NCBI GenBank assembly: GCA_963775895.1
Contig: CAVZKL010000011.1
Coordinates: 67,967-107,966 of the forward strand
DNA: 40,000 bases
Source of the DNA: Candidatus Bathyarchaeota archaeon
GTDB taxonomy: Archaea; Thermoproteota; Bathyarchaeia; Bathyarchaeales; Bathycorpusculaceae
Direction of reading: 5' to 3'
Numbering within the stretch: the stretch's first letter is position 1; every line of letters starts with the position of its first letter. Shown here piece after piece: positions 10,790 through 31,722 of the stretch. A program made the position numbers and the translations under genes. Under the pieces are notes generated by a model that worked only from the letters and a program-made list of their open reading frames with translations, searched no databases and was not told the origin of the DNA.

Positions 10790-10794
10790 TGCTT

Positions 10795-13176
10795 TCACCT
10801 TTCGCGACTCTTTTTGCATTGGGAAATCAATCTCCATATTCTCTCCTTCGTCGCCGGGGTCTCAGCTATCACTATGTTGAATGGCGATAAAGCGTCTTCA
10901 ACGGCATTTATGATTACCACTTTACTTCCTATAGTCGGAGCCTCACCCATACCCTTCGTGCCCAACTCGGTGAATGGGGACGGTGTTTTCACGTGGCCAA
11001 CTTCTATGTTAGGCGCGTCTAAGGCTGTTGGCATTACATAGTCCATATATGAGGTGGAAAGCAATCGCCCATTCTTATCATAAATCAGATGTTCGTTCAA
11101 TGCTTCGCCTATACCTTGCACGACTCCTCCATGAATCTGACCGTCAACAACCTCCTTGTTTATGATCCTGCCAGCGTCATGTACATGCACGTACCTCAAT
11201 ATTTCTACATCGCCTGTTTCCACGTTTACCTCAACTACGGCGACATCTGCAGACGAACAAAACGTTGTATATGTGCTCGTGGGGTTCTGCGTTGTGTTGG
11301 GGCTGAACCAAGTTTCAGAGACATCGAGCAACGTTTCATGCCCCATCTGAAGTTCCTTTTGAAGACCTTTAGGGCCCGGGAAAAAGTACATATATGCCGC
11401 GAGGTCCTTCATCGATATCCTTTTACTCGGATCCCTTGTTGAGTAGATGCAACTACCCTTCATCTCGATGCTACTACTGTCTTCATTTAAAACACTACTC
11501 GCAACTTTTAACACTCTCTCCCTTAATTTCTTTGCAGCCTTAGCAACCGCGCTGAGGCAGTATACAACACCTCTGCTGGACCATGGACCAGCACCAGTAA
11601 TGTCGGAGGAAAACGGGTGCACGATGACGTCGGCAATGTTAACGCCCAGAATTTCGGATACTACTTGTGCAATAACAACCATGGATCCTTGACCTATGTC
11701 CGTTTGATCGCTATAGACTTCAACTTTCCCATCAGGAGTTATTTTGGTGCGCCCAAGTGTCACGCCACTGAATATGCTGTGGGGTATAGCTCCACCCGCA
11801 GGCTCCACAGTAAATGCCAGTCCTATGCCTAGATACTTGTTTTGCCCGATCAAACCTCGTTTACTTCTCCAAGTGTTTATGTCGATCATCTTTAGGGCTT
11901 TTTTGAGTACTTCTGGGTAGTCTCCACTATCGTAAACGTATCCTGAGATTTGCTTGTACGGAAATTCATTTGGCTGAATAAAGTTTCTGAATCTAATTTC
12001 TTCGGGAGCCAAATTGAGTTCTTTGCTTACAATGTTCATTATTCTCTCAATGAATTTTATGCCCTTATCTTTACCAAAGCCTCTGTAAGCACAATAGAAT
12101 GATTTGTTCGTAACAACGGCGTAAGCATCCGTATATAATGCTTTGAGTTTGTACGCGTTGGGGACTGCGCAGCATGCCGGTACTATGCTGCAGGCGCCTG
12201 CTCCTCTGTTTGTTCCTTCAACTCCAATATCGATTATAAACTTTGCTTTTACTCCTAGTATTTGTCCATCATTCTTAACCGCGACTTCACCATCCCATAT
12301 AACATCTCTTTGATGAGGGCCCGTCGCAAAGTTCTCTCTTCTATTTTCAAACCACTTCACAGGTCTTCCAGTGAGGATTGAAGCAGCACATACTACTACA
12401 TCCTTCGACCAGTTTAGCTTATTGCCAAAAGCTCCGCCAACATCGGGGGCTACAACCTCAACTCTGTTCATGGGTATGCGAAGAGCTTGGGCTATATAGC
12501 GTTGTGCTAGAAAGGGAGATTGAGTAGAGCTCCAAACTTTCAACCTGCCCATCGAGTCGTCGTACCAGGCCACGCAGCCCCGAGGTTCTATAGGAAATCC
12601 TGATACCCTACCTTCACGCCAAGACACCTTAATTATGCGGTCAGCCTCTGAAAATGCTGCGTCAATATCGCCGAATTTGAAGGTTACATGAGCTTGTAAA
12701 TTATCTCCCCACTCTTCATATAACAACGGCGAATTCGGTTCCATAGCCGTGATAGCATCTGTGACGATGGGCAAGGGTTCATACTCAATTTCTATTAACT
12801 TAAGTGCGTCAAATGCGTTATATGGGTCTTCAGCTATCACGACGGCTACTGGCTCGCCTATAAACCTTACTTTGTCTGTAGCCAAAGGGTATGCCTTAGG
12901 TATACGCCAATGCCAGCCTAAAGGTCTATAATCTGCATTTGCGGGTAGTGGGTCCATGATTCCTACTAAGTCTTTGCCTGCGAGGATTCTTAGTACACCG
13001 GGCGCCTTCAAAGCTTTAGCCAGATCGATATTTTTTATCTTCGCATGCGCATGAGAGCTTCGCAAAAACACGCAGTAAGCCATATTGGGCAATTCCACAT
13101 CGTCTATGTAACATCCCTTACCTGACATGAGTCGAATGTCCCTTTCTTTTTTCCACTCAATGATGGGTGAAGACAT
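10795..13176 (-). CDS. Xanthine dehydrogenase/aldehyde oxidase/CoxL family molybdopterin-binding large subunit
   Basis: 793 aa, full-length family architecture. Active-site loop reads CAYRGFGKD. Confidence 0.9.
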   Translation of the reverse strand: MSSPIIEWKKERDIRLMSGKGCYIDDVELPNMAYCVFLRSSHAHAKIKNIDLAKALKAPGVLRILAGKDLVGIMDPLPANADYRPLGWHWRIPKAYPLATDKVRFIGEPVAVVIAEDPYNAFDALKLIEIEYEPLPIVTDAITAMEPNSPLLYEEWGDNLQAHVTFKFGDIDAAFSEADRIIKVSWREGRVSGFPIEPRGCVAWYDDSMGRLKVWSSTQSPFLAQRYIAQALRIPMNRVEVVAPDVGGAFGNKLNWSKDVVVCAASILTGRPVKWFENRRENFATGPHQRDVIWDGEVAVKNDGQILGVKAKFIIDIGVEGTNRGAGACSIVPACCAVPNAYKLKALYTDAYAVVTNKSFYCAYRGFGKDKGIKFIERIMNIVSKELNLAPEEIRFRNFIQPNEFPYKQISGYVYDSGDYPEVLKKALKMIDINTWRSKRGLIGQNKYLGIGLAFTVEPAGGAIPHSIFSGVTLGRTKITPDGKVEVYSDQTDIGQGSMVVIAQVVSEILGVNIADVIVHPFSSDITGAGPWSSRGVVYCLSAVAKAAKKLRERVLKVASSVLNEDSSSIEMKGSCIYSTRDPSKRISMKDLAAYMYFFPGPKGLQKELQMGHETLLDVSETWFSPNTTQNPTSTYTTFCSSADVAVVEVNVETGDVEILRYVHVHDAGRIINKEVVDGQIHGGVVQGIGEALNEHLIYDKNGRLLSTSYMDYVMPTALDAPNIEVGHVKTPSPFTELGTKGMGEAPTIGSKVVIINAVEDALSPFNIVIAETPATKERIWRLISQCKKSRER

Positions 13177-13316
13177 TTCTAAGAAACTCCGATGCTAAAT
13201 TACTCGCCATTATGTATCTACTTAACTTTCTGGTATTTGCGCGCGCGCACGAGCTCAAAGGCAAGAGCGCTAAATCAACTCGGCTTAGCGCGCGCTGACT
13301 GTAGGATGTTAATGTT

Positions 13317-13919
13317 TCATTGATCTTCTGTACCCTCGGGTGGGAAATACCTTTTAAGGTCTTCTTCTGAGTCAAAGTCAATGAGGATCTCGTCTGATCC
13401 TGTTTCCACCTTCTTTATTAGTCCTCTATTTGCATTCACAACTGATTTCAAGCCCATCGTTTCCTCGTTTATGTTCATAATCTGACCGAAGAGGAAGCGA
13501 TCAAAAAGTATTGGATGACCTAATCTGCCTCGATGACTTGCCACTACAATATGGCTTCGAGACTTCTTGTATTCTTCAATGACCATATTGATAGCCTCAG
13601 GTGTAATTAGGGCCATGTCTCCGGGGAGCACCAACACAGCCTCCGCGTAACCCATGACAGAATTAACTCCAGCCTTAATTGAAGAGCTTTGACCGATCTC
13701 ATAGTTTTCATTAATTATGAACCTGCACTTGACGTCTTTGAGAGCCCCTTTGATCATTTGCGCTTCATGGCCTAAAACCACAACGATTTCATCTGCTTTT
13801 GAAGCTACAGCACTTTTGACAACCCTCTCGATAATGGTGGAGTCATCAATTTTTTCAAGTAGCCTATTTCTTCCAAACCTTTTTGATAAACCTGCAGCTA
13901 ACACAATGAGGCATATCAA
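13317..13919 (-). CDS. mocA: Molybdenum cofactor cytidylyl/guanylyl-transferase (MocA/MobA-like nucleotidyltransferase)
   Basis: 200 aa, TTG start, N-terminal LIVLAAGLSKRFG motif, located next to xdhC and XDH-family genes. Confidence 0.8.
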   Translation of the reverse strand: MICLIVLAAGLSKRFGRNRLLEKIDDSTIIERVVKSAVASKADEIVVVLGHEAQMIKGALKDVKCRFIINENYEIGQSSSIKAGVNSVMGYAEAVLVLPGDMALITPEAINMVIEEYKKSRSHIVVASHRGRLGHPILFDRFLFGQIMNINEETMGLKSVVNANRGLIKKVETGSDEILIDFDSEEDLKRYFPPEGTEDQ

Positions 13920-13940
13920 GCAATTTCCCAGGAAATATTA

Positions 13941-14015
13941 CTTAACATTTACGGATAAATCTCTTTTCAAATGATGATCTAGACTTTCCGAGTCATATCG
14001 ATTCTTAACATTTAC
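13941..14015. repeat. Direct repeat CTTAACATTTAC x2 (13941-13952 and 14004-14015) in the xdhC-mocA spacer
   Basis: Exact 12-nt copies 63 nt apart. A related word TACTTAAC also occurs at 13219-13226, upstream of the XDH large-subunit gene. Confidence 0.7.
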
Positions 14016-14049
14016 AAAGAAGTTAAGCTCAAGCGCGTTCCAAGTGGGA

Positions 14050-14853
14050 TTATAGACTTTCTTTATCTTTCCTTCTCTCACTTATTATCTCTGCAAGAAT
14101 GCTTATTCCTATTTCTTCGGGGGTTTGAGCGCCGATGTCCAAGCCCAGTGGAGCATGTAGGGATTTCAGGTCGTCATCACCGATTCCTGTTGCCTTAAGT
14201 TTCGTCACAAGCGTTGCGACCTTTGTCCTGCTACCAAGCAGGCCGATGTAAGCCGGCTTCTTTTTTACAATTTTCTCCAAGGCCAAATAGTCGTGTTCGG
14301 GCTCTCCGTGAGCGATAACTACCAGATCTTCTGAAGTTATATCTGTTTTATCGAGTATTTCATTGAAGTTACCTGCGATAATCTCTTCGGCCATAGGATA
14401 CCGCTCCTTGCAAGCTAATTCCTCATTATCATCTACTATAGTGAGGCTAAACCCCAAGATGTCTGCAAATCTTGCTAAAGGCCAAGCCACATGGCCTGCG
14501 CCGATGATTATGAGCCTCGGTTTTGGCTCAATTACATCGATGAATATCGTTAACTCGCCTCCACATATTAACCCTGTCTCGATTGAACCTTCCTTTTTAG
14601 ATGGATGGAGAGAGAAAAAGGCTTTCCTTGGCTTGCCTTCTCTCAAGGCCTTTAAAGACTCGCTAATCAAAAATCTCTCCATACTCCCCCCGCCAATCGT
14701 TCCGGTAGTTTTACCATCTTCAGTTACAATGATTTTTGCTCCGATATCTCTGGGCCCAGAGCCTACCTTTTCAATCAATGAACATAAAGCCACTTTCTTT
14801 CCACTTTCTAAGAGGCGCAGGGCTTCTCTCAATATTTCTAAATCAGTTGTCAC
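14050..14853 (-). CDS. xdhC: XdhC/CoxI family Mo-enzyme maturation factor
   Basis: 267 aa. N-terminal XdhC_CoxI-like region (ALCSLIEKVGSGPRD) plus a Rossmann-like IIGAGHVAWPLA region. Confidence 0.8.
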   Translation of the reverse strand: MTTDLEILREALRLLESGKKVALCSLIEKVGSGPRDIGAKIIVTEDGKTTGTIGGGSMERFLISESLKALREGKPRKAFFSLHPSKKEGSIETGLICGGELTIFIDVIEPKPRLIIIGAGHVAWPLARFADILGFSLTIVDDNEELACKERYPMAEEIIAGNFNEILDKTDITSEDLVVIAHGEPEHDYLALEKIVKKKPAYIGLLGSRTKVATLVTKLKATGIGDDDLKSLHAPLGLDIGAQTPEEIGISILAEIISERRKDKESL

Positions 14854-14867
14854 GGGTTATCTAATTG

Positions 14868-14875
14868 TTTAAATA
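14868..14875 (-). promoter_or_regulatory. TATA-box-like element upstream of xdhC
   Basis: CTATTTAAACAA on the minus strand, 15-22 nt upstream of GTG 14853. The real start may be the TTG at 14832. Confidence 0.45.
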
Positions 14876-15320
14876 GTTTGTTCTTATTTGAATTTTTTGT
14901 CACCAGAAACTTTTGTTACAAGCACGCGCGTGTTTTTGGAGCTCTCTCAACCTTCCCGCTCTTACTGACAAATGTCTTCAACGCGCGCCTAAGCTTAAGG
15001 GGGGCAGTAATCATTCCAGGCGGTCCGCCGGTTTTGTTAAGCCCTTGTTGATACCTTTCAATATTGTAACTGGTTTCATAATAGATAGCCCTCCTAAAGT
15101 CGAAGTCAAGTGCTCTTAATCGTGTGATCGCTGGTTTCTTCGGAATCCTGCGAGGTTTGCAGACCCCAGTCGTTCAAACATTTTGGGGACTTCCCATCGC
15201 TATCAGTTTGATAGTGGTCTCAGTCAATTGTGCTTCAGGAGCGATTGGAGCGAACGTAGGTGTTCAAGTCCTCCGACAATTATATCACTCTGGAGTGTCC
15301 ATTCCAAGCAGAGGTATAAC

Positions 15321-15944
15321 ATGAACTTCGACACGATGTTAAAAAAGGCTACAAGTTTTCACGGCCACACGTGCACCGGTCTGGTGTTGGGCACTAGAAT
15401 AGTGATTGCGGGGAGTCAAAGATTAGGTATCGACGACCCATCCAAAACGCGTGACTTGATAGTATACGTAGAGATAGATCGGTGTTTGGCGGATGCTATC
15501 CAAGCTATAACATTGTGCTCACTTGGGAAACGCAGACTGAAACATGTTGATTATGGGAAATTTGCAGCAACATTTGTGGACACATCGAAGAATAGGGCGG
15601 TACGCATTTCAATAAAGGAGAAAGCCCGTGAGTGGGCGATGAAATACGGCGAAGAACAAGTATTAATAAATAAAGGTGAAATAGTTAACCGAAAGCAAGA
15701 AATGGACATAATGACAGAAGCTTACATGAAGATACCTGATGTAGAGCTTCTAGACGTTAAGGATGTTAGTATAAGCATACCAAAATGGGATCTCCCAGGC
15801 TTGCCTCAACGAAAAGTGACGTGCACCATGTGCGGTGAAAGAATTTTCGATGGTCGCGCGAAAATAAAAAATGGACGAATTCTATGTAGACCATGTGCAG
15901 AAGGCGCATACTACAAAAATCTCAACGAGACACAACCGGAGTAA
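15321..15944 (+). CDS. FmdE family protein with a C-terminal zinc ribbon
   Basis: Start at ATG 15321 preceded by GAGGT. SFHGHTCTGLVLG motif. C-terminal CTMCGERIF...CRPCAEG. Confidence 0.8.
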   Translation: MNFDTMLKKATSFHGHTCTGLVLGTRIVIAGSQRLGIDDPSKTRDLIVYVEIDRCLADAIQAITLCSLGKRRLKHVDYGKFAATFVDTSKNRAVRISIKEKAREWAMKYGEEQVLINKGEIVNRKQEMDIMTEAYMKIPDVELLDVKDVSISIPKWDLPGLPQRKVTCTMCGERIFDGRAKIKNGRILCRPCAEGAYYKNLNETQPE

Positions 15945-15951
15945 CGACTTT

Positions 15952-16740
15952 ATGCCAGGTAAAATCGTTAACGATATTCTAGATTTACTTCCTAACGTCA
16001 TTCCAGATCTAAATATGATAAGGGTTGACAAAGTCATACTAGGATTGGGTTATACAGGGGTTAAGCTTAGCACAGGACAGGTTGGCGTCTGTTTTACTTT
16101 TCAAACTGAGATTTCATTAAGTTGCTGCCAGATTTACAAGAAAGCTGGCAAATTGACTGGAAGCACAGCGATGGAAATGATGAATATGGCGAGGTCATGG
16201 GATCTTAGTGAAAGTGTAATTGGAATCGCCACAGTAAATGCCCTTTCATCCATCGCTATTGCCAACAATAAGGAAGCATATGTCATCTTAAAGGGGAACA
16301 TCTTGGACCACATAGCGTTGGAAAAAAAAGATACCGTTGTCTTTGTAGGCAGGATCAGTCCATTAATCAAACGAATCGAGGGAAAGGTGAAGAGAATCTA
16401 TGTACTCGAAAGAGACTGGGCTCGTCGTGAGAGTGGAGTTTTGCCTGATACGGCATGTGAGGAGATTCTTCCCCAAGCAGACGTCGCTATAATCACTGGA
16501 ACTGCTTTAGTCAACGGAACCATAGACCGTCTGATAGAACTCTCTAAGGGAGCAAGGGAAATAGCAGTTGTGGGCGCTTCAGCGAGCGTTCTTCCAGGCC
16601 CTCTGTTTAAGTGTGGAGTCACATGCGTTGGTGGGATCAAAGTTCTAGATCCAGATAAATTGATGCAGATCGTGGCTGAAGGAGGGGGAACACAACAGCT
16701 GAAGGCAGCCGCTGAATTCATCAACTTGAGGCCAAAATAG
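15952..16740 (+). CDS. DUF4213/DUF364 (putative heavy-metal chelation, Rossmann-like) domain protein
   Basis: Start at ATG 15952, 7 nt after the fmdE-like stop. KVILGLGYTGVKLSTGQVGVCFTF and VAIITGTALVNGT resemble the family; assignment is from memory. Confidence 0.65.
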   Translation: MPGKIVNDILDLLPNVIPDLNMIRVDKVILGLGYTGVKLSTGQVGVCFTFQTEISLSCCQIYKKAGKLTGSTAMEMMNMARSWDLSESVIGIATVNALSSIAIANNKEAYVILKGNILDHIALEKKDTVVFVGRISPLIKRIEGKVKRIYVLERDWARRESGVLPDTACEEILPQADVAIITGTALVNGTIDRLIELSKGAREIAVVGASASVLPGPLFKCGVTCVGGIKVLDPDKLMQIVAEGGGTQQLKAAAEFINLRPK

Positions 16741-18315: not shown

Positions 18316-18680
18316 TCAAGTCTTTGGTTTGGGCAGTTTTCCTAGGTGATCAAGCTCTTTGGCTATTTTCTTAAGTCCGAGTTCATTCAGCTTTTTCATC
18401 GTAGGTATTCCTGTTTTAACATCCCATCCTCTGAGGTTGTAGTATTCGTCCAGCATCTGATCTAGGTTGCACACGTGTCCTTTAGAGGGACCTGAAGGCA
18501 TTGGTTCTTTGGTAAAACGGTCTGGTAAGCTGTCATCTTTCTTGGTTATTCCTTCTCTCACGTTGAAGGCCCTTTCGACGTTGACGATGCGTTCTCCTAT
18601 GCGAAGGGCATCCTTGCCCGTTAGTTCGAGGCCTGTAATAGCGTTTAACACTTGGGCTTGGGCTTCTGCCAGACGAGACC
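18316..18680 (-). CDS. aor: Aldehyde:ferredoxin oxidoreductase (tungstopterin AOR family), C-terminal segment of a frame-split gene
   Basis: The frame of ORF 18316..18756 carries LNAITGLELTGKDALRIGERIVNVERAFNVREG...DDSLPDRF...MLDEYYNLRGWD, the canonical AOR C-terminus. Confidence 0.85.
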
Positions 18681-20225
18681 TGTTCTGGTGATGAATTTGC
18701 ATGCTTCTATCGAATCCGTGAAAGCTCGGACTTCTTCGAACCATTTGACCATGCATGCTTTTCCGTCGGTTGCAAATCTGTCCGCGGCCCTTGGAGTTCC
18801 AAACAGCTCTTTTGCCTTCTCCGGAGTTATCGTGTATTCGAACGCTGGTAGGGCCCTCAGGTGATCCGCACCTCTCGATCCTACAGCGTAGCCCAATCCA
18901 AACGCTTGTATTCCTCGAGGATCACACTCTATATGCTCTAATCCCTTCGTGTGCATTGCGTATTTGTCAGCACCCTTTCCTATCTTCAGTGCTGCAGTGC
19001 GGCAGCCCTCGGCCAGGAGGTTACCTATTCCCTCTCTCGTAGCGATTTTTTCTATCATTTCGAGAACAGCGTCAGCATTTCCCCATTCGAGTTTCAGACC
19101 GTTGGTGTCTTTATCGCTTAGAATTCCTTTTTCATAGCATTCCATAGCGAATCCTATTACTGCTCCCGTGGATATCGTGTCAAGGCCGTATCTCTGGAGC
19201 AAGTCTATAGCTTTGAGCCCTATCTCCAGGTTGGCAACGCCTACTCGCGTCGTATAGTTCGTCACCATGCCGTATTCCAACTTTGGAGCACTCAAACCCG
19301 CAAACGGGCCGTCCTGTATCATCCAGAAGCTTCCACAGTGAAGTGAACATGAAAGGCATCCTCTCTTCTTGACTTCGTATGTTTTTGTGTAATACTCTCC
19401 CAGTAACCCTTCAATTGGGTTGAATTGTCCTTCTTGGAAGTTTCTAGTGACTTGTGCCCCAAGATTCAAATCGTAAATCCTCATCAAGGCCATCGAACCT
19501 TGTTCTGAAAAAAGCCTCGAAGTCGGATCAGAGTAGAGTATTTTGATGTCGTCTTTGGTGATTTCCAACAGTTTGTCTGGGTCAGCTACTTTTACTCCTT
19601 TCGTTCCTCGTACGGCGATAGCCTTAAGGTTTTTGGAGCCCATTACAGCGCCCATGCCAGTTCTTCCAGCTCCTCTAAAAGCATCGCTTAAGATGTTACC
19701 CATCTTAACTAGGTTCTCACCGGCCACGCCAATTTCAACTGTGTGTATTTCTGGATCTCCTGTTTCTTCCAATATCGATTTGTGCGTGTCGTAGGTGTCT
19801 TTGCCCCAAAGGTGCTTTGCGTCTCGAATCTCCACATTGTCATCGTCAATCCAAACGTAAACTGGCTCGCTCGCTCGCCCGTAAACTATTATCTGATCGT
19901 ATCCAGCGTATTTGAGCTCTGGTGCCCAGAATCCTCCACAATTTGAGTCACCAAGAATTCCAGTTAATGGCGACTTGGCTGTAACATTAAACCTTCCAGA
20001 GCCCAGAGGCGAGAGAGCACCAGTTGTTGGTCCCGTACCAAACATCAATATATTATCTGGACCCAAAGGATCAATCTTTGGTTTCAGTTTCCTGTACAAT
20101 GTGATGACGTTCCTGCCCCTGCCTCCAAGGTACATTTTGGTGTCTGTTGGATCCAATGGATGAGTTACTGTTTTTCTTCGTGTCAGATCTATTTCAAGAA
20201 TCCTTCCCGCCCATCCGCACAGCAT
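18645..20225 (-). CDS. aor: Aldehyde:ferredoxin oxidoreductase, N-terminal and central segment
   Basis: About 526 aa. MLCGWAGRILEIDLT...YLGGRG N-terminus. ATG 20225 overlaps the ferredoxin stop (TGATG) and follows GAGGTGA. Homology leaves this frame around 18660-18695. Confidence 0.9.
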   Translation of the reverse strand: MLCGWAGRILEIDLTRRKTVTHPLDPTDTKMYLGGRGRNVITLYRKLKPKIDPLGPDNILMFGTGPTTGALSPLGSGRFNVTAKSPLTGILGDSNCGGFWAPELKYAGYDQIIVYGRASEPVYVWIDDDNVEIRDAKHLWGKDTYDTHKSILEETGDPEIHTVEIGVAGENLVKMGNILSDAFRGAGRTGMGAVMGSKNLKAIAVRGTKGVKVADPDKLLEITKDDIKILYSDPTSRLFSEQGSMALMRIYDLNLGAQVTRNFQEGQFNPIEGLLGEYYTKTYEVKKRGCLSCSLHCGSFWMIQDGPFAGLSAPKLEYGMVTNYTTRVGVANLEIGLKAIDLLQRYGLDTISTGAVIGFAMECYEKGILSDKDTNGLKLEWGNADAVLEMIEKIATREGIGNLLAEGCRTAALKIGKGADKYAMHTKGLEHIECDPRGIQAFGLGYAVGSRGADHLRALPAFEYTITPEKAKELFGTPRAADRFATDGKACMVKWFEEVRAFTDSIEACKFITRTGLVWQKPKPKC

Positions 20226-20731
20226 CACTTTTTCACCTCATTCTTAAGCAATTCACGGGATCGCAACAGTGGACCTGCAAATTTGTTCAACATACGCTGT
20301 CGTTTAGTTTTCGCAGCCATATCGGCCTCCACGAAACGAATTGCTTCGGTAACGCAGTATTTCACGCAAGTTGGGTCACCATCGCAAAGATCACATTTGG
20401 TCAACTCACGCCGCTCAAGATCGACGTTGATTGCGCCATAGGGGCATACCATCATGCAGGCATTGCATCCGATGCATACAGATGGCTCCAAGATCATTGC
20501 GCCAGTCTGAGGTTTTCGTTGAAGAGCTCCCACTGGGCAAACAGTTCTGCACGGGGCATTTTCGCAATGTTGACAGATTACTGGCAAGTCCAATCCTTCG
20601 TGAGGCATGGAAAGAACCCTTATGCGCGACTTCTGAGGATTACATTCTCCAGTTTTCTTAAGAGAACAGGCTAATTCACATGTTCGGCAGCCAGTGCAAC
20701 GTTCTGGTTCAACGACGATAACTTTCACCAC
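20225..20731 (-). CDS. 4Fe-4S polyferredoxin-type protein co-transcribed with AOR
   Basis: Motifs CTGCRTCELAC, CQHCENAPCRTVCP, CIGCNACMMVCP, CDLCDGDPTCVKYC. Start placed at GTG 20731, because the longer ORF start (20788) would overlap the moaD promoter. Confidence 0.8.
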   Translation of the reverse strand: MVKVIVVEPERCTGCRTCELACSLKKTGECNPQKSRIRVLSMPHEGLDLPVICQHCENAPCRTVCPVGALQRKPQTGAMILEPSVCIGCNACMMVCPYGAINVDLERRELTKCDLCDGDPTCVKYCVTEAIRFVEADMAAKTKRQRMLNKFAGPLLRSRELLKNEVKK

Positions 20732-20791
20732 AGGCGACACCAGAACCTTAAAATGAATATCGGATTTCTTATAAACATTGTTGATCACTCC

Positions 20792-21070
20792 ATGATAACC
20801 GTAAGACTATATTCAATTTTCAGGGAAGTGGTCGGCAAAGAAGAGTTGACCCTTGATTTGAAGGAAGTGACCGTTAAGGGTCTTCTTGACCTACTATTCA
20901 AAAAATACTCAAAAGAATTTGAGGAAAGGAAATACACTAAGGTGGACGGTTTTCCCTCAAATATCGCAATCTACGTTCAAGGTAAAATGCTAAACTTGAA
21001 TGAAGCTCTAGATGTGCGTTTAAAGGACGGCGACGAGATACACCTTCTCGAGATAGTTTTGGGGGGCTAG
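20792..21070 (+). CDS. moaD: MoaD/ThiS-family ubiquitin-like small protein (SAMP-like) ending in Gly-Gly
   Basis: 92 aa from ATG 20792 (MITVRLYSIFREVVGKEEL). The C-terminus is ...LLEIVLGG followed by the stop. Confidence 0.8.
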   Translation: MITVRLYSIFREVVGKEELTLDLKEVTVKGLLDLLFKKYSKEFEERKYTKVDGFPSNIAIYVQGKMLNLNEALDVRLKDGDEIHLLEIVLGG

Positions 21071-21097: not shown

Positions 21098-21262
21098 CTA
21101 GCTTGTGTTCATTCGCGCGATGGCTCTTCTTCCGATGAAACTCGATAAACTCTTTTGTTTACATCTTGTGCAAAGTTTTAAGTTTCTTTCAAACCTTTCC
21201 AGGTTTTCTTTGCGGATAAGATCAGTTTTCCCCATCACGTTCAATATTTCTTTGAATTGGGG
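21098..21262 (-). CDS. Possible frame-shifted C-terminal extension of the hydrogenase small subunit (completes a CxxC...CxxC zinc-ribbon)
   Basis: The frame of ORF 21098..21295 reads PQFKEILNVMGK...LKLCTRCKQK. Adding one C to the run at 21259-21262 (G4 on the + strand) joins it after VRCEKCGRIIGQRP. No family evidence for this tail. Confidence 0.35.
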   Translation of the reverse strand, partial: PQFKEILNVMGKTDLIRKENLERFERNLKLCTRCKQKSLSSFIGRRAIARMNTS

Positions 21263-22053
21263 CGCTGACCAATTATGCGTCCACACTTCTCGCATCTCAC
21301 TTCTTTGATCTCAATACTCGTCGCCATGTTTTCTCTTTTACACGTTGACATTTCGAAAACCTTGGTCAGGCGTATCGCACTTTCCGGGCATGCTTCTTCG
21401 CATTTTGCGCAGAACATGCACTTGCCGATGTCTAGCTTCAGCACTTCCTTGCCGTCTTTGTCTGCAATTGTTATTGCTTCGGTAGGACACACAAATGCAC
21501 AGGCGCCACATCCGATGCACTTTGCAGAATCAAGTTCTGGTTTGCCTCTGAATTCTTTGGGAGCGGGGGTGGGATGATACGGTATCTTCTTTATTCCAAG
21601 CAGTTTTTCTGACATTAAGAGTATTCCTTGGAATATTGCCTGCGGCCTCGGGGGGCATCCGGGAACGTAGACATCTACGGGAAAAAGCTTGTCTACGGGT
21701 CCAGAAAAGGAATCACTCTTGCCGAAAACCGCCCTGGATATCGCGCATGTCCCTACCGCTACGACGCCTTTTGGTTCTGGAACTGATTCATATACTCTTA
21801 TCAAGTCATCTGTTATTTTCATAGGGACAGGACCAGTGATCACCAAGATGCTGGCTTCAGCAGGCGAATTCACGAACTTGAACCGGAACCCTTCAACATC
21901 AAAACAGCGTACTGCTGCCGTAAGAGCTTCAATATCGCAAGCGTTGCATGATCCTGCATCGGCACGGAATATGCCAACTTCCTGAAAATGTTTTCTTTGT
22001 GTGGCCACTCCTTTTAATTTAGGTCTCTTCTGATGGTTAGTGCCAATACTCAT
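21241..22053 (-). CDS. [NiFe] hydrogenase group-4-type small subunit (NuoB/HycG-like) fused to a 2x[4Fe-4S] NuoI/HycF-like domain
   Basis: GSCNACDIE, GTCAIS and PGCPPRP (NuoB-type cluster ligands), followed by CIGCGACAFVCP and CMFCAKCEEACP. Confidence 0.85.
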   Translation of the reverse strand: MSIGTNHQKRPKLKGVATQRKHFQEVGIFRADAGSCNACDIEALTAAVRCFDVEGFRFKFVNSPAEASILVITGPVPMKITDDLIRVYESVPEPKGVVAVGTCAISRAVFGKSDSFSGPVDKLFPVDVYVPGCPPRPQAIFQGILLMSEKLLGIKKIPYHPTPAPKEFRGKPELDSAKCIGCGACAFVCPTEAITIADKDGKEVLKLDIGKCMFCAKCEEACPESAIRLTKVFEMSTCKRENMATSIEIKEVRCEKCGRIIGQRPNSKKY

Positions 22054-22071
22054 AGGCGCGTTTCTCCTTCG

Positions 22072-23661
22072 CTAGCCAATCAAGCGCCCCTTTTTCACTA
22101 CCTTACCATTTTCAATGATCGCCATGCGATCAGTACAGCTGAAGCATGGGTCAATGCTTGCTATGATTGTATTGAGAATTACGGGTTCAGTAGTGGACTC
22201 ATCCATTAACATCGGTTTCAATGCAACGAGATTTGCCAGGGTTGGTGTCCGTATCTTAACCCGCTCAGGATACAGAGAGCCGTTAGACCTAACATAATAC
22301 ATGTTCTCTCCCCTGGGAGCTTCGCCTCTTCCTACTGCCTCACCTTTTGGTATTTCCAATACGGGCACGGCAATGGGTCCTCTTGGTATGTTGCCTAACA
22401 GATTCCTGATGATCCTGGACGATTCAAGAATCTCATCAATTCGTACCATCAGCCTTGCCTTCACGTCGCCTTCGCTTCTGGTCACGACATTAAAGTCTAT
22501 CTCAGGGTAGGCAGCATAAGGATCTAGTTTTCTTATATCCAGTGATAATCCAGAAGCGCGAGCGTTCGGCCCGACTACATCCAATTTCTTCGCTTCTTCT
22601 CGTGTAAGAACGCCTTTTCCCTCTATTATCTTTGCGATCGAAGGTTTTTTCTGAAATGCGTCTTCGATCTTCTGCATATCTGAGTCTATGTTATCCAGAG
22701 CGCTGGTTATCATGGCGGCTTTTTTCTCATTGATATCCCGTCGCACTCCTCCTAATTCGAGTATCCCGTAATGAACACGGTTGCCCGTCACTGTTTCAAA
22801 GATGTCCATAACTCTTTCCCGTTCTGAAAAGATCCGCGCGAAAAGATCTTCAGCCCCTGTTTTCTCAGCTTCTAGCCCCAAGTATAGCATGTGACTGTGG
22901 ATTCTTTCCAGCTCAGAGATGATTGTTCTAATGTATCTAGCTCTGTCCGGGGTTTTCACCTTCGTGATGTCCTCCACAGCTTGCGTGAAACACAATGGAT
23001 GAATGTTCGAGCAAATTCCGCAGACTCTTTCCACGATGGCAACTGCCTGGTGAAATGTTCTGGATTCAACTAACTTTTCTATCCCTCTAGTAATATAGCC
23101 TATGTTTATGCGGACATCAACTATCTTGGTGCCGTCTGCAATTATCTCCAATTGTTCTGGCTCGTCAAGCCACGGATGAAAGGGACCTATTATGACTCTT
23201 GAACTGGATGAAACTGCGCCACGCGCCCGAACACTCTCGAGCGGATACTCTGCCTTCGGCGGTTTTTTTGACGCGACACTCATTCGAGGGTTAGCACGAC
23301 GATCTCTGAACTTGATTCCAAACAAATCCGTTACTTCTCTTTCGTAAAGATAAGCGGACGGAATTATGTCTGCAATGGTTTCAAGCTCCAGAGTATCTCT
23401 GGGAATTGAGGTCTGAACATTTGTGAGAATTCCGGCGATGTCGAAATGATAGATTACTTGGAATCCAAGAGGAGCATCTACCCCAGTTACGGCGACAAGA
23501 CGAGCCTGAAACTTTTCTCTCAAGAATTCCGCAGCAATTTTGTATCCTTTTTCGTTAACCTTTATGAATACGCGCCTTTTTCTTGGAATTACATGGCTCA
23601 TTAGACGCTTTCCCAATCTTTTCCTTAGATCTACCAGAATCGTGTCCTCGTCAACTTTCAT
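22072..23661 (-). CDS. [NiFe] hydrogenase group-4-type large subunit with a fused N-terminal NuoC-like domain (HycE-like architecture)
   Basis: 529 aa. NiFe-ligand motifs RVCGICSNIH (L1) and DPCFSCTDR (L2), with 17 residues after L2. The N-terminal ~130 aa are NuoC-like. Confidence 0.85.
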   Translation of the reverse strand: MKVDEDTILVDLRKRLGKRLMSHVIPRKRRVFIKVNEKGYKIAAEFLREKFQARLVAVTGVDAPLGFQVIYHFDIAGILTNVQTSIPRDTLELETIADIIPSAYLYEREVTDLFGIKFRDRRANPRMSVASKKPPKAEYPLESVRARGAVSSSSRVIIGPFHPWLDEPEQLEIIADGTKIVDVRINIGYITRGIEKLVESRTFHQAVAIVERVCGICSNIHPLCFTQAVEDITKVKTPDRARYIRTIISELERIHSHMLYLGLEAEKTGAEDLFARIFSERERVMDIFETVTGNRVHYGILELGGVRRDINEKKAAMITSALDNIDSDMQKIEDAFQKKPSIAKIIEGKGVLTREEAKKLDVVGPNARASGLSLDIRKLDPYAAYPEIDFNVVTRSEGDVKARLMVRIDEILESSRIIRNLLGNIPRGPIAVPVLEIPKGEAVGRGEAPRGENMYYVRSNGSLYPERVKIRTPTLANLVALKPMLMDESTTEPVILNTIIASIDPCFSCTDRMAIIENGKVVKKGRLIG

Positions 23662-23910: not shown

Positions 23911-24774
23911 TCAAAAACAGCTTTTGACGAGGCTGATAACGTCAGCTGGTCTTGCAGCTATTTTGACTCCTGCACGCCTCAAAATATCGGTCTTACTTTG
24001 AACCGTGCCCCTTTCACGCAAAATTATTGCACCTGCGTGGCCCATTCTCTCTCCCGCGGGAGCTACTCGACCTGCTACGTAAGCGACGACTGGCTTCGTC
24101 ATCTTACGGATGAATCCCGCAGCCTCCTCTTCCTGTACTCCACCAATCTCGCCTACGACGACTACGAGTTTTGTTTGTTGGTCTTCTTCGAACAGTTTCA
24201 ATATGACCGTCAAATCAATCCCGACCACTGGGTCAGCGCCTATTCCCAAGCAGGTGCTCTGTCCGATGCCAGACGCCGAGAGATTACCTGCGATCTCATA
24301 CGACAAAGTCCCGCTTCTAGAGACTATTCCAACGTTGCCTTCGGTGAAGACACTTGCTGGCATAATGCCGATCTTTGTTTTTCCGGGACTTATTACCCCT
24401 GGAGTTGTTGGGCCTATGACTTTTGTTCCCATAGATTGTGCGTATTCTCGGATGTAAATCGTGTCGTGAACTGGAACGTGTTCGGTTATTATCACGATAA
24501 GCTTTATGCCAGACGATATTGCTTCAATGGCAGCATCTTTTGTTCCCCAAGCGGGAACGAATATGATCGAGGCATCAGCGGCGCGTTCCGAAACTGCCTG
24601 ACTCACGGTGTCATAGACCGGTACATCGTAGACCTTTGTGCCTCCCTTTCCAGGAGTTGTACCTGCAACTATCTTAGATCCGTAGTCGAGCATGAGTTTC
24701 GTTTGGATGTTTCCCACTCTGCCCGTTATCCCTTGAACTATGATGCGAGTTTCTTTATCTGCAAGAATGCACAT
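23911..24774 (-). CDS. sucD: Succinyl-CoA synthetase-type ligase alpha subunit (SucD / malate-CoA ligase-like)
   Basis: 287 aa. IVQGITGRVG and the phosphohistidine loop RMGHAGAI. Confidence 0.85.
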   Translation of the reverse strand: MCILADKETRIIVQGITGRVGNIQTKLMLDYGSKIVAGTTPGKGGTKVYDVPVYDTVSQAVSERAADASIIFVPAWGTKDAAIEAISSGIKLIVIITEHVPVHDTIYIREYAQSMGTKVIGPTTPGVISPGKTKIGIMPASVFTEGNVGIVSRSGTLSYEIAGNLSASGIGQSTCLGIGADPVVGIDLTVILKLFEEDQQTKLVVVVGEIGGVQEEEAAGFIRKMTKPVVAYVAGRVAPAGERMGHAGAIILRERGTVQSKTDILRRAGVKIAARPADVISLVKSCF

Positions 24775-28428: not shown

Positions 28429-28858
28429 CTACATCACTTTCAGTATTCCATTTTCGGTGATTTTTCTGCCGTCTATCTCAATCGTTGGGTCTCGAATTAT
28501 CAGGTCTATGTGAAGAGGCGCCTGGATCTTGCCTCCGAGGGGCAGATTGCTTCCCACGCCGATATGAGCGGTTCCAAGGGCTCCCTCGTCTTCCAACAGT
28601 CTTCCAATGACCGTGGCCTTGGGGTTTAGTCCGAGCCCAACCTCGGCTATGTTGTACACGTTCGAATCTTTCGTGCTTTCAAGCATTTTCCTGAGCTTCT
28701 CAGCCTCCTCTCCTCCTTCAATTGAAGTGATGAATCCCTTTTTTATCACAACTTTGATCGGTTTTTTCACGATTCCTATTGCGCTCGCTGCCGCATCGAC
28801 CATCAAAATTCCGTCGGCAGTTCCTTCAAGCGGAGGCACATTGACCTCGACATCTGGG
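28429..28858 (-). CDS. M29/AmpS (aminopeptidase T)-like family protein, C-terminal segment of a frame-split gene
   Basis: The frame of ORF 28429..28887 reads PPDVEVNVPPLEGTADGILMVD...GALGTAHIGVG...HIDLIIRDPTIEIDG. Confidence 0.7.
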
Positions 28859-29399
28859 GGTGGCCGAAATCGCCAGGCTTGTGGCAAATTCCAGTTTCCA
28901 TGTTCGTTCTCCTTCCTTTGATGATCGCTGTGAGATTTGTTCCTGCTGGATTCGTAACTTTGATGGTGTCACCGTGGAAAACCTTTGAGACTCTTTCTGC
29001 CAGATCTTTCAAAACAGTGAAATCTGCCTCGATTCCGCCCTCTATGAGCATGTTCTCAGAATAGTCGGGCATTGTTATCATCCGAGCTCCAGTCTTCAGA
29101 GCTTCCACGGTCGCTTTGGTTCGGCTTATTGAGAAGGTTGTGGGGGAGAAGATTACATCTGCTGCTTTCATCGCGGCTGCCACCGTTCTTGGTGGTTCTT
29201 CACTGTGCAGTTTGCGTGGCGTCATGACAATAATTGCCGTCTCAGCTTCTTTGGAGTATGCGGCCGCAGCTAGGACCTCGGCTATGCTGAGCTTGTTCGT
29301 GTCAGCGACTATCAACACATTCTCGCCTTTTTGGACTCCGCCGCAGACCTCTACAAGCTTCATCGCACCTTTCATCATTCGAATTCTGTCAGATTCCAA
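28859..29399 (-). CDS. M29/AmpS-like family protein, N-terminal segment
   Basis: ORF 28803..29399 (MMKGAMKLVEVCGGVQKGENVLIVADTN...). One extra C in the run at 28856-28860 (G5 on the + strand) joins ...KPGDFGHP to PDVEVNVPP. Confidence 0.7.
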
Positions 29400-30745: not shown

Positions 30746-31722
30746 TCACTGTTGAGTCTTAGAAAAATGCCCTCTTTCTCTGAGGATTTTCACAACTTCT
30801 CTGACAAATATCAGTTCCTCATTCGTAGGAATGACGTAGATTCGTACGCGCGAATTTGAACGACTTATGTCCATTTCCACTTCTCCGCCAATTGCCTGCA
30901 TATTCTTTTGGGGATCAATTTGGATACCTAGGAATTCGAGTCCTTCACATATCTTTCCACGATAAAGGGAAGAGTTTTCGCCGACTCCCGCAGTGAAGAC
31001 GACAGCGTCTATTCCTCCCATTGCCGCCGCATAAGCTCCTATGAACTTCTTCAATCTGTGGCATTCCACTTCAATGGCCAGTTTTGCTCTGTCATCTCCG
31101 TCTTCAGCCGCTTTAATCACATCACGTCTGTCGACGTATTTGCCTGTTATTCCCAAGAGTCCACTTTTCTTATTTAGGATGTCACTCATTTGGGTGTGCG
31201 TCAGATTTTCTTTTTCCATGATGTGCAATGCCACACCCACGTCTAGATCGCCAGAGCGAGTTCCCATCACAGCTCCTTCCAGCGGAGTGAACCCCATGCT
31301 GTGATCATAGGCTACGCCTTTCTTCACAGCGGTTACGCTGACACCATTCCCAATGTGAAGTGTGATGACGTTGATCTCCGATGGTGTTTTTCCAAGAAGT
31401 TCAGCAGCTCTCCTCGAGACGTAAGAGTGGGAACTGCCGTGGAAACCGTATTTTCGGACACCATACTTTTCGTACCATTGATACGGTACGGCGTAAGTGT
31501 AAGCGTGGGCAGGCATGGTTGAAAAGAAGGCTGTGTCAAAAATTGCCACCTGCGGTATATTTGGAACCAGATTCATTGCCGCTCTTATACCCTGAAGATT
31601 GGGTGGATTATGCAGAGGAGCAAGCGTGCTGCATTCTTCGATCGCTCTTATGACGTTATCATCAATAAGCACAGAATCTGTAAACTTTGCTCCTCCGTGA
31701 ACAACGCGATGACCTATTGCAT
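30746..31722 (-). CDS. ackA: Acetate/propionate kinase family protein, C-terminal segment of a frame-split gene
   Basis: APLHNPPNL, GFHGSSHSYV, GFTPLEGAVMGTRSGDLD, VFTAGVGENS, VIPTNEEL. The same frame upstream reads INAIGHRVVHGGAKFTDSVLID without a start codon. Confidence 0.9.

Follow-up and report, generated by a model that had tools for sequence, protein, structure and literature searches.

Among the complex-I-related, group 4 [NiFe] hydrogenases, the formate hydrogenlyase (FHL) of Escherichia coli (hydrogenase 3; FdhF–HycBCDEFG; group 4a; PDB 7Z0S) and the membrane-bound hydrogenase (MBH) of Pyrococcus furiosus (MbhJKLN; group 4d; PDB 6CFW) are natural points of reference for the system analysed here. 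This is a module of two adjacent genes in a 40,000-nucleotide stretch of DNA – hereafter the window – from a Candidatus Bathyarchaeota archaeon (GenBank assembly GCA_963775895.1, contig CAVZKL010000011.1, positions 67,967 to 107,966). The two genes almost certainly encode a bona fide group 4 core, with the complete redox arm of the enzyme contained in two polypeptides: a large subunit that joins NuoC-like (C) and NuoD-like (D) units and a small subunit that joins NuoB-like (B) and NuoI-like (I) units. Probably, no membrane arm is dedicated to it.

FHL shares with the module the NuoC–NuoD fusion (as HycE; TM-score 0.86), a HycG-like domain, a HycF-like relay domain including, once a frameshift is repaired, its C-terminal cysteine quartet, a processing tail of the large subunit past ...CTDR and, encoded alongside, a HycB-like four-cluster polyferredoxin together with a pterin-dependent substrate dehydrogenase. 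The window differs from it in lacking HycC and HycD, in its G-then-F fusion, in having a tungsten-family aldehyde:ferredoxin oxidoreductase (AOR) instead of the molybdenum/selenium enzyme FdhF, and in not conserving the residues of the NDUFS7 loop, with an identity of only ~28–34%; no molybdopterin formate dehydrogenase, NADHdh or Proton_antipo domain is encoded beside the module. MBH, in turn, has the same B, C, D and I units, provides the best PDB sequence matches and is a ferredoxin-linked H2 evolver of a peptide fermenter, which we count as a further likeness. However, its units are four separate proteins that sit, via MbhM, on a ten-subunit Mrp-like arm, whereas the window has two proteins and no arm in view, and MbhN – unlike the BI fusion of the window – has no match to the HycF-type C-terminal extension. 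In Thermoprofundales subgroup E, MbhJKLN are encoded apart from the membrane arm (PMC9585477), so that the peripheral-arm genes, as in the window, do not adjoin membrane-arm genes; there, however, the membrane arm lies elsewhere in the genome and the proteins are typical of Mbh. Gene context alone is therefore insufficient to judge whether an arm is detached.

Closest to the module in full-length large-subunit sequence (40–44% identity) are the Hfo enzymes of Bathyarchaeia (11-subunit, Fpo-like; group 4g; PMC7886697), which have the NuoC–NuoD fusion and, intact, L1 and L2, the two motifs that bind [NiFe]. They differ in that their operons (L003–L006) also contain genes for NuoB, H, I, J, K, L, M and N, in that none of the signature residues discussed below is lost, and in that B and I are separate. 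The Coo type (group 4c) is defined by the order cooMKLXUH and the CooF/CooS CO dehydrogenase; the window instead reads CD–BI, has no CooM, CooK or CO dehydrogenase, and its large subunit is 38–41% identical to those of Coo-like loci.

The enzyme core as such is known, and so are membrane-less group 4 clusters, from Sulfurospirillum and from Methanocellales (Drh). The EchEDFC cluster of Sulfurospirillum multivorans, whose arrangement has been called 'remarkable' and whose transcripts were negligible (PMC5357620), resembles the module in having no membrane-subunit genes, a B–I fusion with the cysteine quartet and a convergent loss of signature residues; it differs in being bacterial, in its Coo-type gene order (BI-C-D-Fer4-HypA) and phylogeny, in its unfused C and D, and in having no AOR neighbourhood. 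The HdrB-interacting hydrogenases (Ehd, Ehe, Ehg, Drh and 'Ehd-like'; PMC9723716) are recognised by a CCG-domain (HdrB-like) subunit in the operon, and in the window the two genes have no CCG gene between them or next to them. On the side of the aldehyde-oxidising partner, AorABC of Aromatoleum aromaticum and WOR1 (Wor1LS–Wor1ABC) share with the window an AOR–polyferredoxin dimer, an exchangeable output module and a nearby MoaD-like gene. Their output modules are the FAD subunit AorC and a HydABC-like bifurcating module, respectively, whereas that of the window would be a group 4 [NiFe] hydrogenase.

A first-pass annotation, made from the sequence alone, had suggested that the module would be an unusual minimal architecture. 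This needs qualifying, as membrane-less group 4 enzymes had already been noted in Sulfurospirillum (PMC5357620) and Methanocellales (Drh; PMC9723716). What appears to be new is the compression into two genes (CD and BI), the recurrent pairing with an AorAB-type AOR, including a bacterial AOR–Coo operon, how far membrane-less families extend in Bathyarchaeia and Hadarchaeota, and a convergent residue signature that separates detached modules from those that are merely split.

A redox arm in two polypeptides

The domain search consisted of Pfam scans of essentially all sizeable open reading frames (ORFs) of the window. In the large subunit, a single ORF of 529 amino acids (aa), it found PF00329 Complex1_30kDa (aa 34–129; 1.7e-15), PF00346 Complex1_49kDa (1.2e-61) and PF00374 NiFeSe_Hases (3.3e-16), which amounts to the NuoC–NuoD fusion typical of HycE. 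The best sequence matches in the PDB are MbhL (6CFW_L; 2.9e-71) and HycE (7Z0S_E; 8e-66), and the AlphaFold2 model (predicted local distance difference test score, pLDDT, 88.2; predicted TM-score 0.89) is matched best by HycE as well (Foldseek; 7Z0S_E; TM-score 0.86/0.86 over both domains and 530 columns), the linker between the NuoC-like and catalytic domains (aa 121–151) being modelled at a pLDDT below 50. Of the two [NiFe]-binding motifs, L1 (RVCGICSNIH, aa 212–221) is invariant in a 38-sequence alignment (A2) and fits the group 4 pattern C[GS][ILV]C[AGNS]xxH (PMC7886697). L2 (DPCFSCTDR, aa 504–512) fits the pattern [DE][PL]Cx[AGST]Cx[DE][RL] that served in our test of group 4 membership, and its D504, C506, C509 and R512 are invariant in the same alignment.

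The 17 residues that follow Arg512 are, by analogy with HycE, whose maturation includes C-terminal processing, a likely substrate of a HycI-type maturation endopeptidase; HycI genes adjoin operons of the related type 1 family described below. The large subunit of one sister lineage (P0003/P0242; L091 4361–5455) stops exactly at ...CIACTDR and has no tail, so that the need for endopeptidase processing seemingly varies within a small clade.

The small subunit, encoded after an 18-nt spacer that contains a GGAG ribosome-binding site, is 270 aa long as assembled (ORF 21241–22053(–)) and 318 aa long after repair of a 1-nt frameshift. It combines PF01058 Oxidored_q6 (7.7e-24) with a 2x[4Fe-4S] (Fer4) domain, also matches the NCBIfam HycF/HyfH models, and carries the GSCNAC, GTCA and PGCPP cysteines as well as two CxxCxxCxxxCP motifs. 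As expected of a NuoB-type small subunit, the proximal-cluster cysteines C36, C39, C103 and C133 are invariant in the family alignments. PDB matches are MbhJ (4.7e-36), HycG (1e-25) and, over aa 156–301, HycF (4.8e-22), and the top fold matches of the AlphaFold2 model (pLDDT 82.7) are HycF, HycG and MbhJ. Beyond the Fer4 domain follows the HycF-type quartet (C254, C257, C295 and C298), present in 14/14 and 28/28 aligned family members but complete in frame only after the repair, the second pair being out of frame in the assembly.

All 20 cysteine ligands of the Fe-S clusters and the Ni-Fe site are intact in the module. The anatomy that the first-pass annotation had put forward – two genes with fused subunits, a 529-aa NuoC–NuoD/HycE-like protein with both [NiFe] motifs intact and a 17-aa tail, and a NuoB/HycG-like domain (GSCNAC, GTCA, PGCPPRP) fused to a NuoI/HycF-like one, flanked by a sucD-like gene upstream and a convergent moaD downstream – is thus borne out by Pfam, motif reading and alignments.

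Sister loci and membrane-less families

No membrane arm is in sight. Within the window, the Pfam scans gave no NADHdh, Proton_antipo, Oxidored_q2/q3, Hyp or HycI domains, and a crude hydropathy scan gave no ORF with three or more transmembrane segments within 8 kb of the module, in agreement with the earlier statement that the window has no NuoH-, NuoL/Mrp- or HycC/D-like integral membrane genes.

Close relatives are few. A word-indexed search of 5.8 billion proteins yielded only three partial or full relatives above the general level of 40–44% identity (82, 65 and 57%), while among 1.84 billion representatives, searched exhaustively with HMMER, the identity of full-length proteins did not exceed 46%; a scan of GTDB representatives gave no relative closer than 40%, and a metagenome scan, among the matches listed, none closer than 39%. 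The nearest relatives of the hydrogenase genes belong to Bathyarchaeia and Hadarchaeota. To place them in context, we surveyed 172 loci around homologues, drawn from species-representative genomes and metagenomes, with ORFs labelled by hidden Markov models built from seed proteins.

Three related lineages (L001/L002, L007 and L091/L092) have the module at six loci, in none of which, as in the window itself, a NuoH-like anchor or an antiporter-like (PF00361) subunit is encoded with the hydrogenase. In L007, the order is module, convergent ThiS, Fer4_11 and AOR. In L001/L002, separate C (129 aa) and D (359 aa) genes are accompanied by one for a BI fusion of 289 aa and by a ThiS gene in convergent orientation, and in L001 a Fer4_11–AOR pair lies 4.5 kb upstream of the module. 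In L091/L092, AOR, Fer4_11 and an 87-aa ORF diverge from the genes for C (143 aa), D (364 aa) and BI (291 aa) and from a ThiS-like one. As C is a gene of its own in the sister lineages (129–143 aa, ending 1–20 nt before the D gene), the CD fusion is specific to the lineage of the window, and the loci form a series in which the four ancestral units are first reduced to three genes and finally to two.

A neighbour-joining tree of 54 context-labelled large subunits (200 bootstraps) recovers the window clade as monophyletic (100%) and supports type 1 at 89%, with the sister group of the window clade – type 1, Coo/type 2 or Nuo-like – supported at 4–55%. None of the sampled membrane-bound clusters contains the window clade; a placement of that kind is what the first-pass annotation had named as counting against a soluble enzyme. 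In the BI fusion, the nearest relatives likewise come from membrane-less operons of two kinds, while the Mbh/Mrp-, Hyc- and Nuo/Hfo-type loci of the survey are membrane complexes, and Coo-type operons consist of a CooM-like 1270-aa protein followed by CooK, B, Fer4, C, D, HypA and CooF.

The first kind, type 1, comprises 19 loci from Bathyarchaeia and Hadarchaeota (L008–L012, L014, L015, L017, L019, L025, L032, L093–L099 and L101) with the genes Fer4_11, NuoC (227 aa), CCG (HdrB-like), [NiFe] large subunit (375 aa) and BI fusion, to which some loci add an HdrC-like and a second CCG gene; HycI and HypF/C/D are often nearby. None of these 19 operons has a NuoH or antiporter gene, and their signature residues are nearly all lost. 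They probably correspond to the 'Ehd-like/Drh' HdrB-interacting hydrogenases of PMC9723716, in which Drh and the Bathyarchaeia/Hadarchaeota loci, like the window, have no antiporter-like subunits. Type 1 proteins are archaeal, include the closest BI-fusion relatives of the module (33–43% identity, full-length) and share with it a HycB-like Fer4_11 gene and the loss of signature residues. They differ from it in the CCG gene that always lies between C and D, in the separate 227-aa C and in their presumed partner, a disulphide rather than an aldehyde oxidoreductase. Type 1 operons often stand beside Ni/Co-type transporters (CbiQ/O, ZIP). The possibility that they hide a different membrane anchor was considered and rejected, as the adjoining multi-transmembrane genes encode ZIP, CbiQ, YeeE-like and EamA transporters.

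The second kind, type 2, is bacterial, shares with EchEDFC of Sulfurospirillum the order BI-C-D-Fer4-HypA without membrane genes, and occurs in Geobacterales (L018, L031) and Campylobacterota (L030, L034, L039), as well as at L103.

A residue signature of membrane docking

Given that gene context can mislead, the proteins themselves were compared for residues that go with a membrane arm. Signature columns were defined by a conservation of at least 80% among 26 homologues whose loci encode membrane subunits and by a retention of at most 30% in types 1, 2 and L103, the window clade being held out of the definition; the D domain has 9 such columns and the B domain 15, besides 72 (D) and 22 (B) core columns conserved in both sets. 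The sample is one of convenience and phylogenetically non-independent, with ~5 clades of independent losses. The window keeps 69/72 (D) and 20/22 (B) core positions, i.e. 95%, and 2/9 (D) and 7/14 (B) signature positions (9/23 in total), compared with 4–6/9 and 4–5/14–15 in the sister lineages and means of 0.90 (D) and 0.92 (B), with minima of 0.67 and 0.73, in membrane-bound homologues.

Five held-out loci (L115, L132, L143, L081 and L070) are informative here. These are Mbh-like B-C-D-Fer4 sets with no adjacent NuoH-like gene – in L143, J/K/antiporter genes follow ~2 kb downstream – and, judging from their residues, docking to a membrane arm has probably been kept in them, as in the split MBH reported from Thermoprofundales subgroup E (PMC9585477). 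Because they keep 8–9/9 (D) and 13–15/15 (B) signature positions (22–24/24), the signature tracks docking and not gene adjacency.

Three segments illustrate the change. The NDUFS7 loop is one of four loops situated where the soluble and membrane parts of FHL meet and has been linked to coupling (PMC9474812). In its counterpart, assigned in the window by the offset from HycG, membrane-bound homologues end in G-SP-(R/K)-H-A-D while the window reads NSPAEAS, so that the G, R, H and D of 'GSPRHAD', which make up four B-domain signature columns, are all changed. In the β1–β2 loop, whose role is also known from FHL (PMC9474812), the catalytic Glu167 and His162 are kept, and the flanking P and A of membrane-bound homologues are replaced by I and W; the window thus conserves neither the 'SP(R/K)HAD' of the NDUFS7 loop nor the β1–β2 flanks. 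Finally, the Glu of a 'GE' turn – present in 26/26 membrane-bound and 5/5 split-operon homologues and in at least 90% of the 38 sequences of A2 – is Thr178 in the window, and its place is taken by D, N, G or H in the remaining membrane-less clades. The B-to-I fusion, moreover, leaves no equivalent of HycF residues 1–16, which form an amphipathic helix on the membrane surface in all solved structures of the complex I family (PMC9474812). A change of the same kind is found in the Geobacterales clusters (L018, L031), which are nested among Coo-type sequences and read SPAEAD where their Coo-type relatives read SPKHAD, an apparently convergent substitution.

These observations bear on the most obvious alternative, namely that the module belongs, as its peripheral arm, to an ordinary group 4 hydrogenase, membrane-bound and energy-converting, whose NuoH-like and antiporter-like genes lie elsewhere in a split operon. 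Thermoprofundales subgroup E offers a precedent, L115, L132 and L143 have the same kind of B-C-D-Fer4 set without an adjacent NuoH, some interface residues such as His162 are kept in the window, and our data cover the 40 kb of the window. Yet split loci keep 22–24/24 signature positions as opposed to 9/23 in the window, where the NDUFS7 loop is changed at 4/4; membrane genes are absent from all six loci of the three related lineages; the B–I fusion does away with the free N-terminal amphipathic helix of HycF/NuoI; and the window clade stands outside every sampled membrane-bound cluster. We therefore regard a split operon as unlikely, and the soluble or peripheral enzyme that the first-pass annotation had envisaged as probably the better reading, strengthened by the sister lineages, the membrane-less BI relatives and the lost coupling residues.

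The aldehyde oxidoreductase neighbourhood

The module lies close to genes for an AOR of the tungsten-enzyme family and a polyferredoxin. The latter has 16 cysteines in four cluster motifs, which indicates four [4Fe-4S] clusters, and its PDB matches are AorA (8C0Z_C; 4.4e-41), 9MQX_E (5.7e-39), the WOR5 β subunit (2e-25) and HycB (5.1e-23); those of the AOR are 9MQX_D (2e-135), the P. furiosus AOR (1AOR; 2e-129) and AorB (8C0Z_A; 2e-116). A catalytic subunit with AFOR_N and AFOR_C domains next to a four-cluster polyferredoxin is the composition of an AorAB-type pair. The protein described earlier as a ferredoxin is accordingly an AorA/HycB-type four-cluster subunit and not a free ferredoxin, while the proposed link between the hydrogenase and the AOR genes is reinforced by what follows. 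Neither an AorC FAD subunit nor a HydABC-like output module is encoded beside the AOR pair in the window, L001, L007 or L091.

In all three lineages, an AOR and a Fer4_11 gene are found at most 5 kb from the module, in three different arrangements, and an AOR is nearby in only 2/167 other group 4 loci. The AOR of the window is 73% identical to that of L001 and ~40% to that of L091, and the hydrogenase is 65% identical to that of L091 and 57% to that of L001; with the AOR closer to one lineage and the hydrogenase to the other, the two have not simply been co-inherited. As for the ThiS/MoaD-family protein, its identity to the one encoded convergently in L002 is 57%; in L091, too, the module has ThiS-like genes at its side, and in L024 one lies between AOR and hydrogenase.

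This last locus, one of the two with an AOR among the 167 and from a cultured bacterium, Bacillus sp. DNRA2 (NZ_JABAIT010000018.1, 2417–12942), is an operon that runs in one direction and comprises Fer4_11, AOR (overlapping by 4 nt), ThiS, a CooM-like 1270-aa antiporter-type protein, a CooK/NuoH-like protein, B, Fer4, C, D and HypA. By its gene content, it looks like a membrane-bound counterpart of our module with AOR in place of CO dehydrogenase, and its product is a candidate for an energy-converting, membrane-bound, aldehyde-dependent hydrogenase. Two further membrane operons may be mentioned. L160 (8316–17374) is Hyc-like (antiporter-like genes, NuoH-like gene, CD fusion, Fer4 and B) and is followed 3–7 kb downstream by a Fer4_11 gene, an AOR in opposite orientation and a ThiS gene. 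L172 (779–10774) combines a CD fusion with a fused Fer4/B protein of 355 aa; should F precede G in this protein, the N-terminus of HycF would not be tied up.

How the two partners might meet is suggested by FHL, where the HycF quartet (C117/C120/C155/C158 in E. coli) is a metal-binding site that touches HycB close to the interface with FdhF (PMC9474812). Given this contact, the invariant quartet extension of the BI fusions is a natural docking site for an AorA/HycB-like subunit. AOR–polyferredoxin dimers are, moreover, known to plug into different output modules: AorC and, in WOR1, a HydABC-like module (PMC12096430, PMC10413684). Full-text searching of the literature found no description of a hydrogenase as the output module of an AOR, or of an AOR-linked or two-gene group 4 module. 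We consider the odds even that the AOR is the specific partner of the hydrogenase.

Alternatively, the hydrogenase could be a stand-alone, soluble ferredoxin:H+ oxidoreductase that, in amino-acid fermentation, re-oxidises free ferredoxin reduced by whichever oxidoreductase of 2-oxoacids or aldehydes, with the AOR merely co-regulated. The window is indeed rich in genes for amino-acid catabolism (aminotransferases, a succinyl-CoA-synthetase-like enzyme, the arginine deiminase pathway, an ABC transporter), a 249-bp gap lies upstream of the module, a convergent gene separates module and AOR, and in L001 their distance is 4.5 kb. We nonetheless think this improbable, as the invariant HycF-type extension is where, in FHL, a HycB-type polyferredoxin makes contact, and not a site for free ferredoxin (PMC9474812), a HycB/AorA-like four-cluster protein is encoded beside the module in all three lineages and inside type 1 and Coo-type operons, and the association with AOR has persisted despite a swap of the AOR itself.

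The small-subunit frameshift

The break in the small-subunit gene deserves separate treatment. The ORF 21098–21295(–) is the continuation of the protein in another frame and provides the second CxxC pair. An uninterrupted 318-aa homologue (P0248, a JGI protein, 95% identical and in the same 90% cluster) reads ...CGRIIGPAPQFKEIL... across the site and places the missing base at GGT(C)CAG (~21267), outside the C4 run at 21259–21262, although either repair restores the frame. The first-pass annotation, which expected a CxxC...CxxC ribbon upon correction of that run, was thus right about the frameshift and the second CxxC but not about the position, the lesion being ~5–8 nt upstream of the run. 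The same frameshift is present in L007, a Logan contig of independent origin with 99.86% identity over 5.9 kb, so that it may be either a shared assembly error or a very recent truncation at strain level. Programmed –1 frameshifting on C-CCC finds no support, as an intact allele exists and the window has other indels of the assembly type.

Several of these fall in other genes. The AOR is split into ORFs of 527 and 146 aa by a 1-nt deletion (~18668) that is absent from L007, where the AOR is an intact 636-aa protein, and is probably an assembly indel or a strain-specific lesion. An ornithine cyclodeaminase (8231–9230(+)) consists of two overlapping ORFs, and further broken genes lie at 28429–29399(–) and 30746–31672(–), namely an M29 peptidase split in two and an acetate-kinase-family ORF that aligns only to profile positions 102–391, its N-terminus missing. 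Either the assembly is prone to indels or the genome has many recent frameshifts.

That the module is a decaying or inactive remnant is a reading to which the frameshift, identical in the window and L007, lends itself, as does the absence of hyp and hycI genes from the 40 kb; the loss of function considered for the barely transcribed Sulfurospirillum homologue (PMC5357620) would be a parallel. It is nevertheless very unlikely. P0248 is intact, the out-of-frame tail is open for 53 codons and, compared with it, as well conserved (92.5% identity) as the remaining protein (95.4%), the cysteine ligands are complete, and the strain differences in the large subunit (two synonymous, two conservative) suggest that this gene is maintained. 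In addition, assembly indels appear to be common, given at least three other split genes in the window and an AOR frameshift that L007 does not have.

Proposed mechanism and its weight

Taken together, the parts suggest a cytoplasmic enzyme with neither a NuoH-like anchor nor an antiporter-like subunit, which for that reason would not translocate ions. Its most likely electron input would be the neighbouring AorAB-type tungsten AOR, at whose tungsten–pterin site an aldehyde would be oxidised. Electrons would then pass from the [4Fe-4S] cluster of AOR to the four clusters of the AorA/HycB-like polyferredoxin, which would dock on the HycF-like C-terminal extension in the way HycB does in E. coli FHL, and from there, by way of the two clusters of the HycF domain and then the proximal one, to the [NiFe] site, where protons would be reduced to H2. 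The net reaction would be R-CHO + H2O -> R-COOH + H2. With the acid/aldehyde couple at ~–580 mV and H+/H2 at –414 mV, this reaction is exergonic by roughly 30 kJ/mol, and as such a strongly exergonic reaction does not need membrane coupling, uncoupled operation is plausible.

For the whole chain, from aldehyde through AOR, polyferredoxin and hydrogenase to H2 in a cytoplasmic, ion-uncoupled, FHL-like enzyme, we see about as much reason for belief as for doubt. More tentatively still, the system could be called a soluble 'aldehyde hydrogenlyase', a cytoplasmic counterpart both of formate hydrogenlyase and of the AOR–Coo operon of L024. The docking to the AorA-like protein and AOR, the direction of catalysis, solubility in vivo and the activity of the frameshifted allele are all matters that we infer. 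Operation mainly in H2 uptake, delivering low-potential electrons to ferredoxin or to AOR for the conversion of acid to aldehyde and alcohol, is highly improbable: AOR does reduce acids when given low-potential electrons, the bacterial enzyme can be H2-driven (PMC12096430) and a Zn-dependent alcohol dehydrogenase gene is present at 36671–37804, but established potentials make acid reduction by H2 endergonic under standard conditions, group 4 enzymes of the FHL type favour the production of H2 (PMC9474812) and, without membrane coupling, there would be no energy input for reducing ferredoxin.

Several points weigh against a detached, AOR-fed enzyme. The scope is a 40-kb window of a 115-kb contig, and the genome could have an orphan membrane arm, hyp genes and hycI in other places, as the separate arms of Thermoprofundales subgroup E illustrate (PMC9585477). 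The window keeps ~40% of signature positions, compared with 4–7% in the type 1 family, among them His162 of the β1–β2 loop and the D-x-E of the B domain, and within a signature drawn from a phylogenetically non-independent convenience sample, only the NDUFS7-loop columns are placed structurally. The frameshift, found in the window assembly and in a second contig, would deprive the product of half of the cysteine quartet proposed for polyferredoxin docking. With the convergent ThiS gene standing between them, module and AOR pair do not form one operon in the window, and AOR genes are multi-copy in peptide fermenters. The membrane-less homologue of Sulfurospirillum had negligible transcripts (PMC5357620), and the mechanism itself is read from genes and sequence.

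Features and gene content of the window

Coordinates of the module, its motifs and its neighbours are collected below.

Positions, strands and basis of assignment of features in and around the hydrogenase module
Feature	Position	Strand	Basis
sucD-like gene	23911–24774	–	upstream flank of module
Large-subunit gene, 529 aa: NuoC-like domain + NuoD/HycE-like [NiFe] catalytic domain	22072–23661	–	Pfam, PDB, AlphaFold2
NuoC/HycE-N-terminal-like domain, aa 1–135	23257–23661	–	PF00329
β1–β2 loop IIGPFHPWLDEP, aa 157–168	23158–23193	–	column comparison; loop role from PMC9474812
G177-T178, 'GE' turn with Thr for Glu	23128–23133	–	column comparison
L1 [NiFe]-binding motif RVCGICSNIH, aa 212–221, Cys214 and Cys217	22999–23028	–	direct reading
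L2 [NiFe]-binding motif DPCFSCTDR, aa 504–512, Cys506 and Cys509	22126–22152	–	direct reading
C-terminal tail after Arg512, 17 aa, MAIIENGKVVKKGRLIG	22075–22125	–	direct reading
Small-subunit fusion gene: NuoB/HycG-like + HycF/NuoI-like 2x[4Fe-4S] + Cys-quartet extension	21098–22053	–	Pfam, NCBIfam, PDB, AlphaFold2
NDUFS7 coupling-loop counterpart (HycG 69–80), RFKFVNSPAEAS	21850–21885	–	B-domain alignment columns 38, 41, 42, 44
First Cys pair of HycF-type quartet, C254-E-K-C257	21283–21294	–	invariant in alignments A1 and A3
Frameshift site, one C missing relative to P0248 (GGT-CCA-GCG-CCC-CAA)	21259–21268	–	comparison with intact homologue
Second Cys pair of quartet, C295-T-R-C298	21161–21172	–	out of frame in assembly
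ThiS/MoaD-family gene, product ends Gly-Gly, convergent with module	20753–21070	+	PF02597, 1.8e-10
AorA/HycB-like polyferredoxin, 187 aa	20225–20788	–	PF13247 Fer4_11
Tungsten aldehyde:ferredoxin oxidoreductase family gene	18316–20228	–	PF02730 + PF01314 on both pieces

The two hydrogenase genes are co-directional, and the likely start of the ThiS/MoaD-family protein is MITVRLY at 20792. In gene content, the window leans towards the catabolism of amino acids and organic acids, with two aminotransferases, SucCD-like and LarA-like proteins and arginine-deiminase-pathway genes, and also encodes a branched-chain amino-acid ABC transporter, a xanthine-dehydrogenase-family cluster and an Sdh/Tfr-like trio. 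The trio (706–3954(–)), a soluble set resembling thiol:fumarate reductase or succinate dehydrogenase, is made up of a 564-aa flavoprotein of the SdhA-like kind, a Fer2_3 protein of 122 aa and a CCG+Fer4_8 protein of 346 aa; adjoining it is a dihydroorotate-dehydrogenase-like protein with a C-terminal 2x[4Fe-4S] domain (4034–5392(–)). The CCG/Fer4_8 protein (706–1746), the window's sole CCG protein, was considered as a missing HdrB-like partner of the hydrogenase and rejected, being 20 kb away and beside SdhA/SdhB-like genes. The cluster of the xanthine-dehydrogenase/CO-dehydrogenase family (9427–16740) has an FAD subunit, a [2Fe-2S] subunit and a 793-aa molybdenum-cofactor subunit, accompanied by MobA-like, XdhC, FmdE+zinc-ribbon and DUF364/DUF4213 genes, and together with the MoaD-like gene makes the neighbourhood rich in pterin-cofactor functions. 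A tRNA and Rfam search of the window gave no match, and a search with ornithine carbamoyltransferase gave, besides close matches, distant ones from bacteria.

Implications

Group 4 hydrogenases are commonly regarded as membrane complexes that convert energy. Metabolic reconstructions credit any 'group 4' match with ion pumping, and clades that lack the membrane arm and have lost the coupling-loop residues would need to be scored differently. Signature loss is a cheap and testable predictor of membrane docking, which separates split operons from soluble enzymes; if the proposal holds, a group 4 enzyme that has lost SPRHAD in the NDUFS7 loop and the 'GE' turn of NuoD would be predicted to be truly soluble. 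For tungsten enzymes, a direct wire from AOR to a hydrogenase would be a new combination of modules, and a compact two-gene [NiFe] hydrogenase would be on offer for chemistry between aldehydes or acids and H2.

The wider interest is evolutionary. MBH and complex I have been proposed to have arisen when a soluble [NiFe] module joined an Mrp antiporter (PMC8165549), and membrane-less modules could be either survivors of this soluble, pre-fusion state or repeated reversions to it. If our reading is correct, hydrogenase modules of the complex I type would have been repeatedly released from their membrane arms, or would never have joined them.

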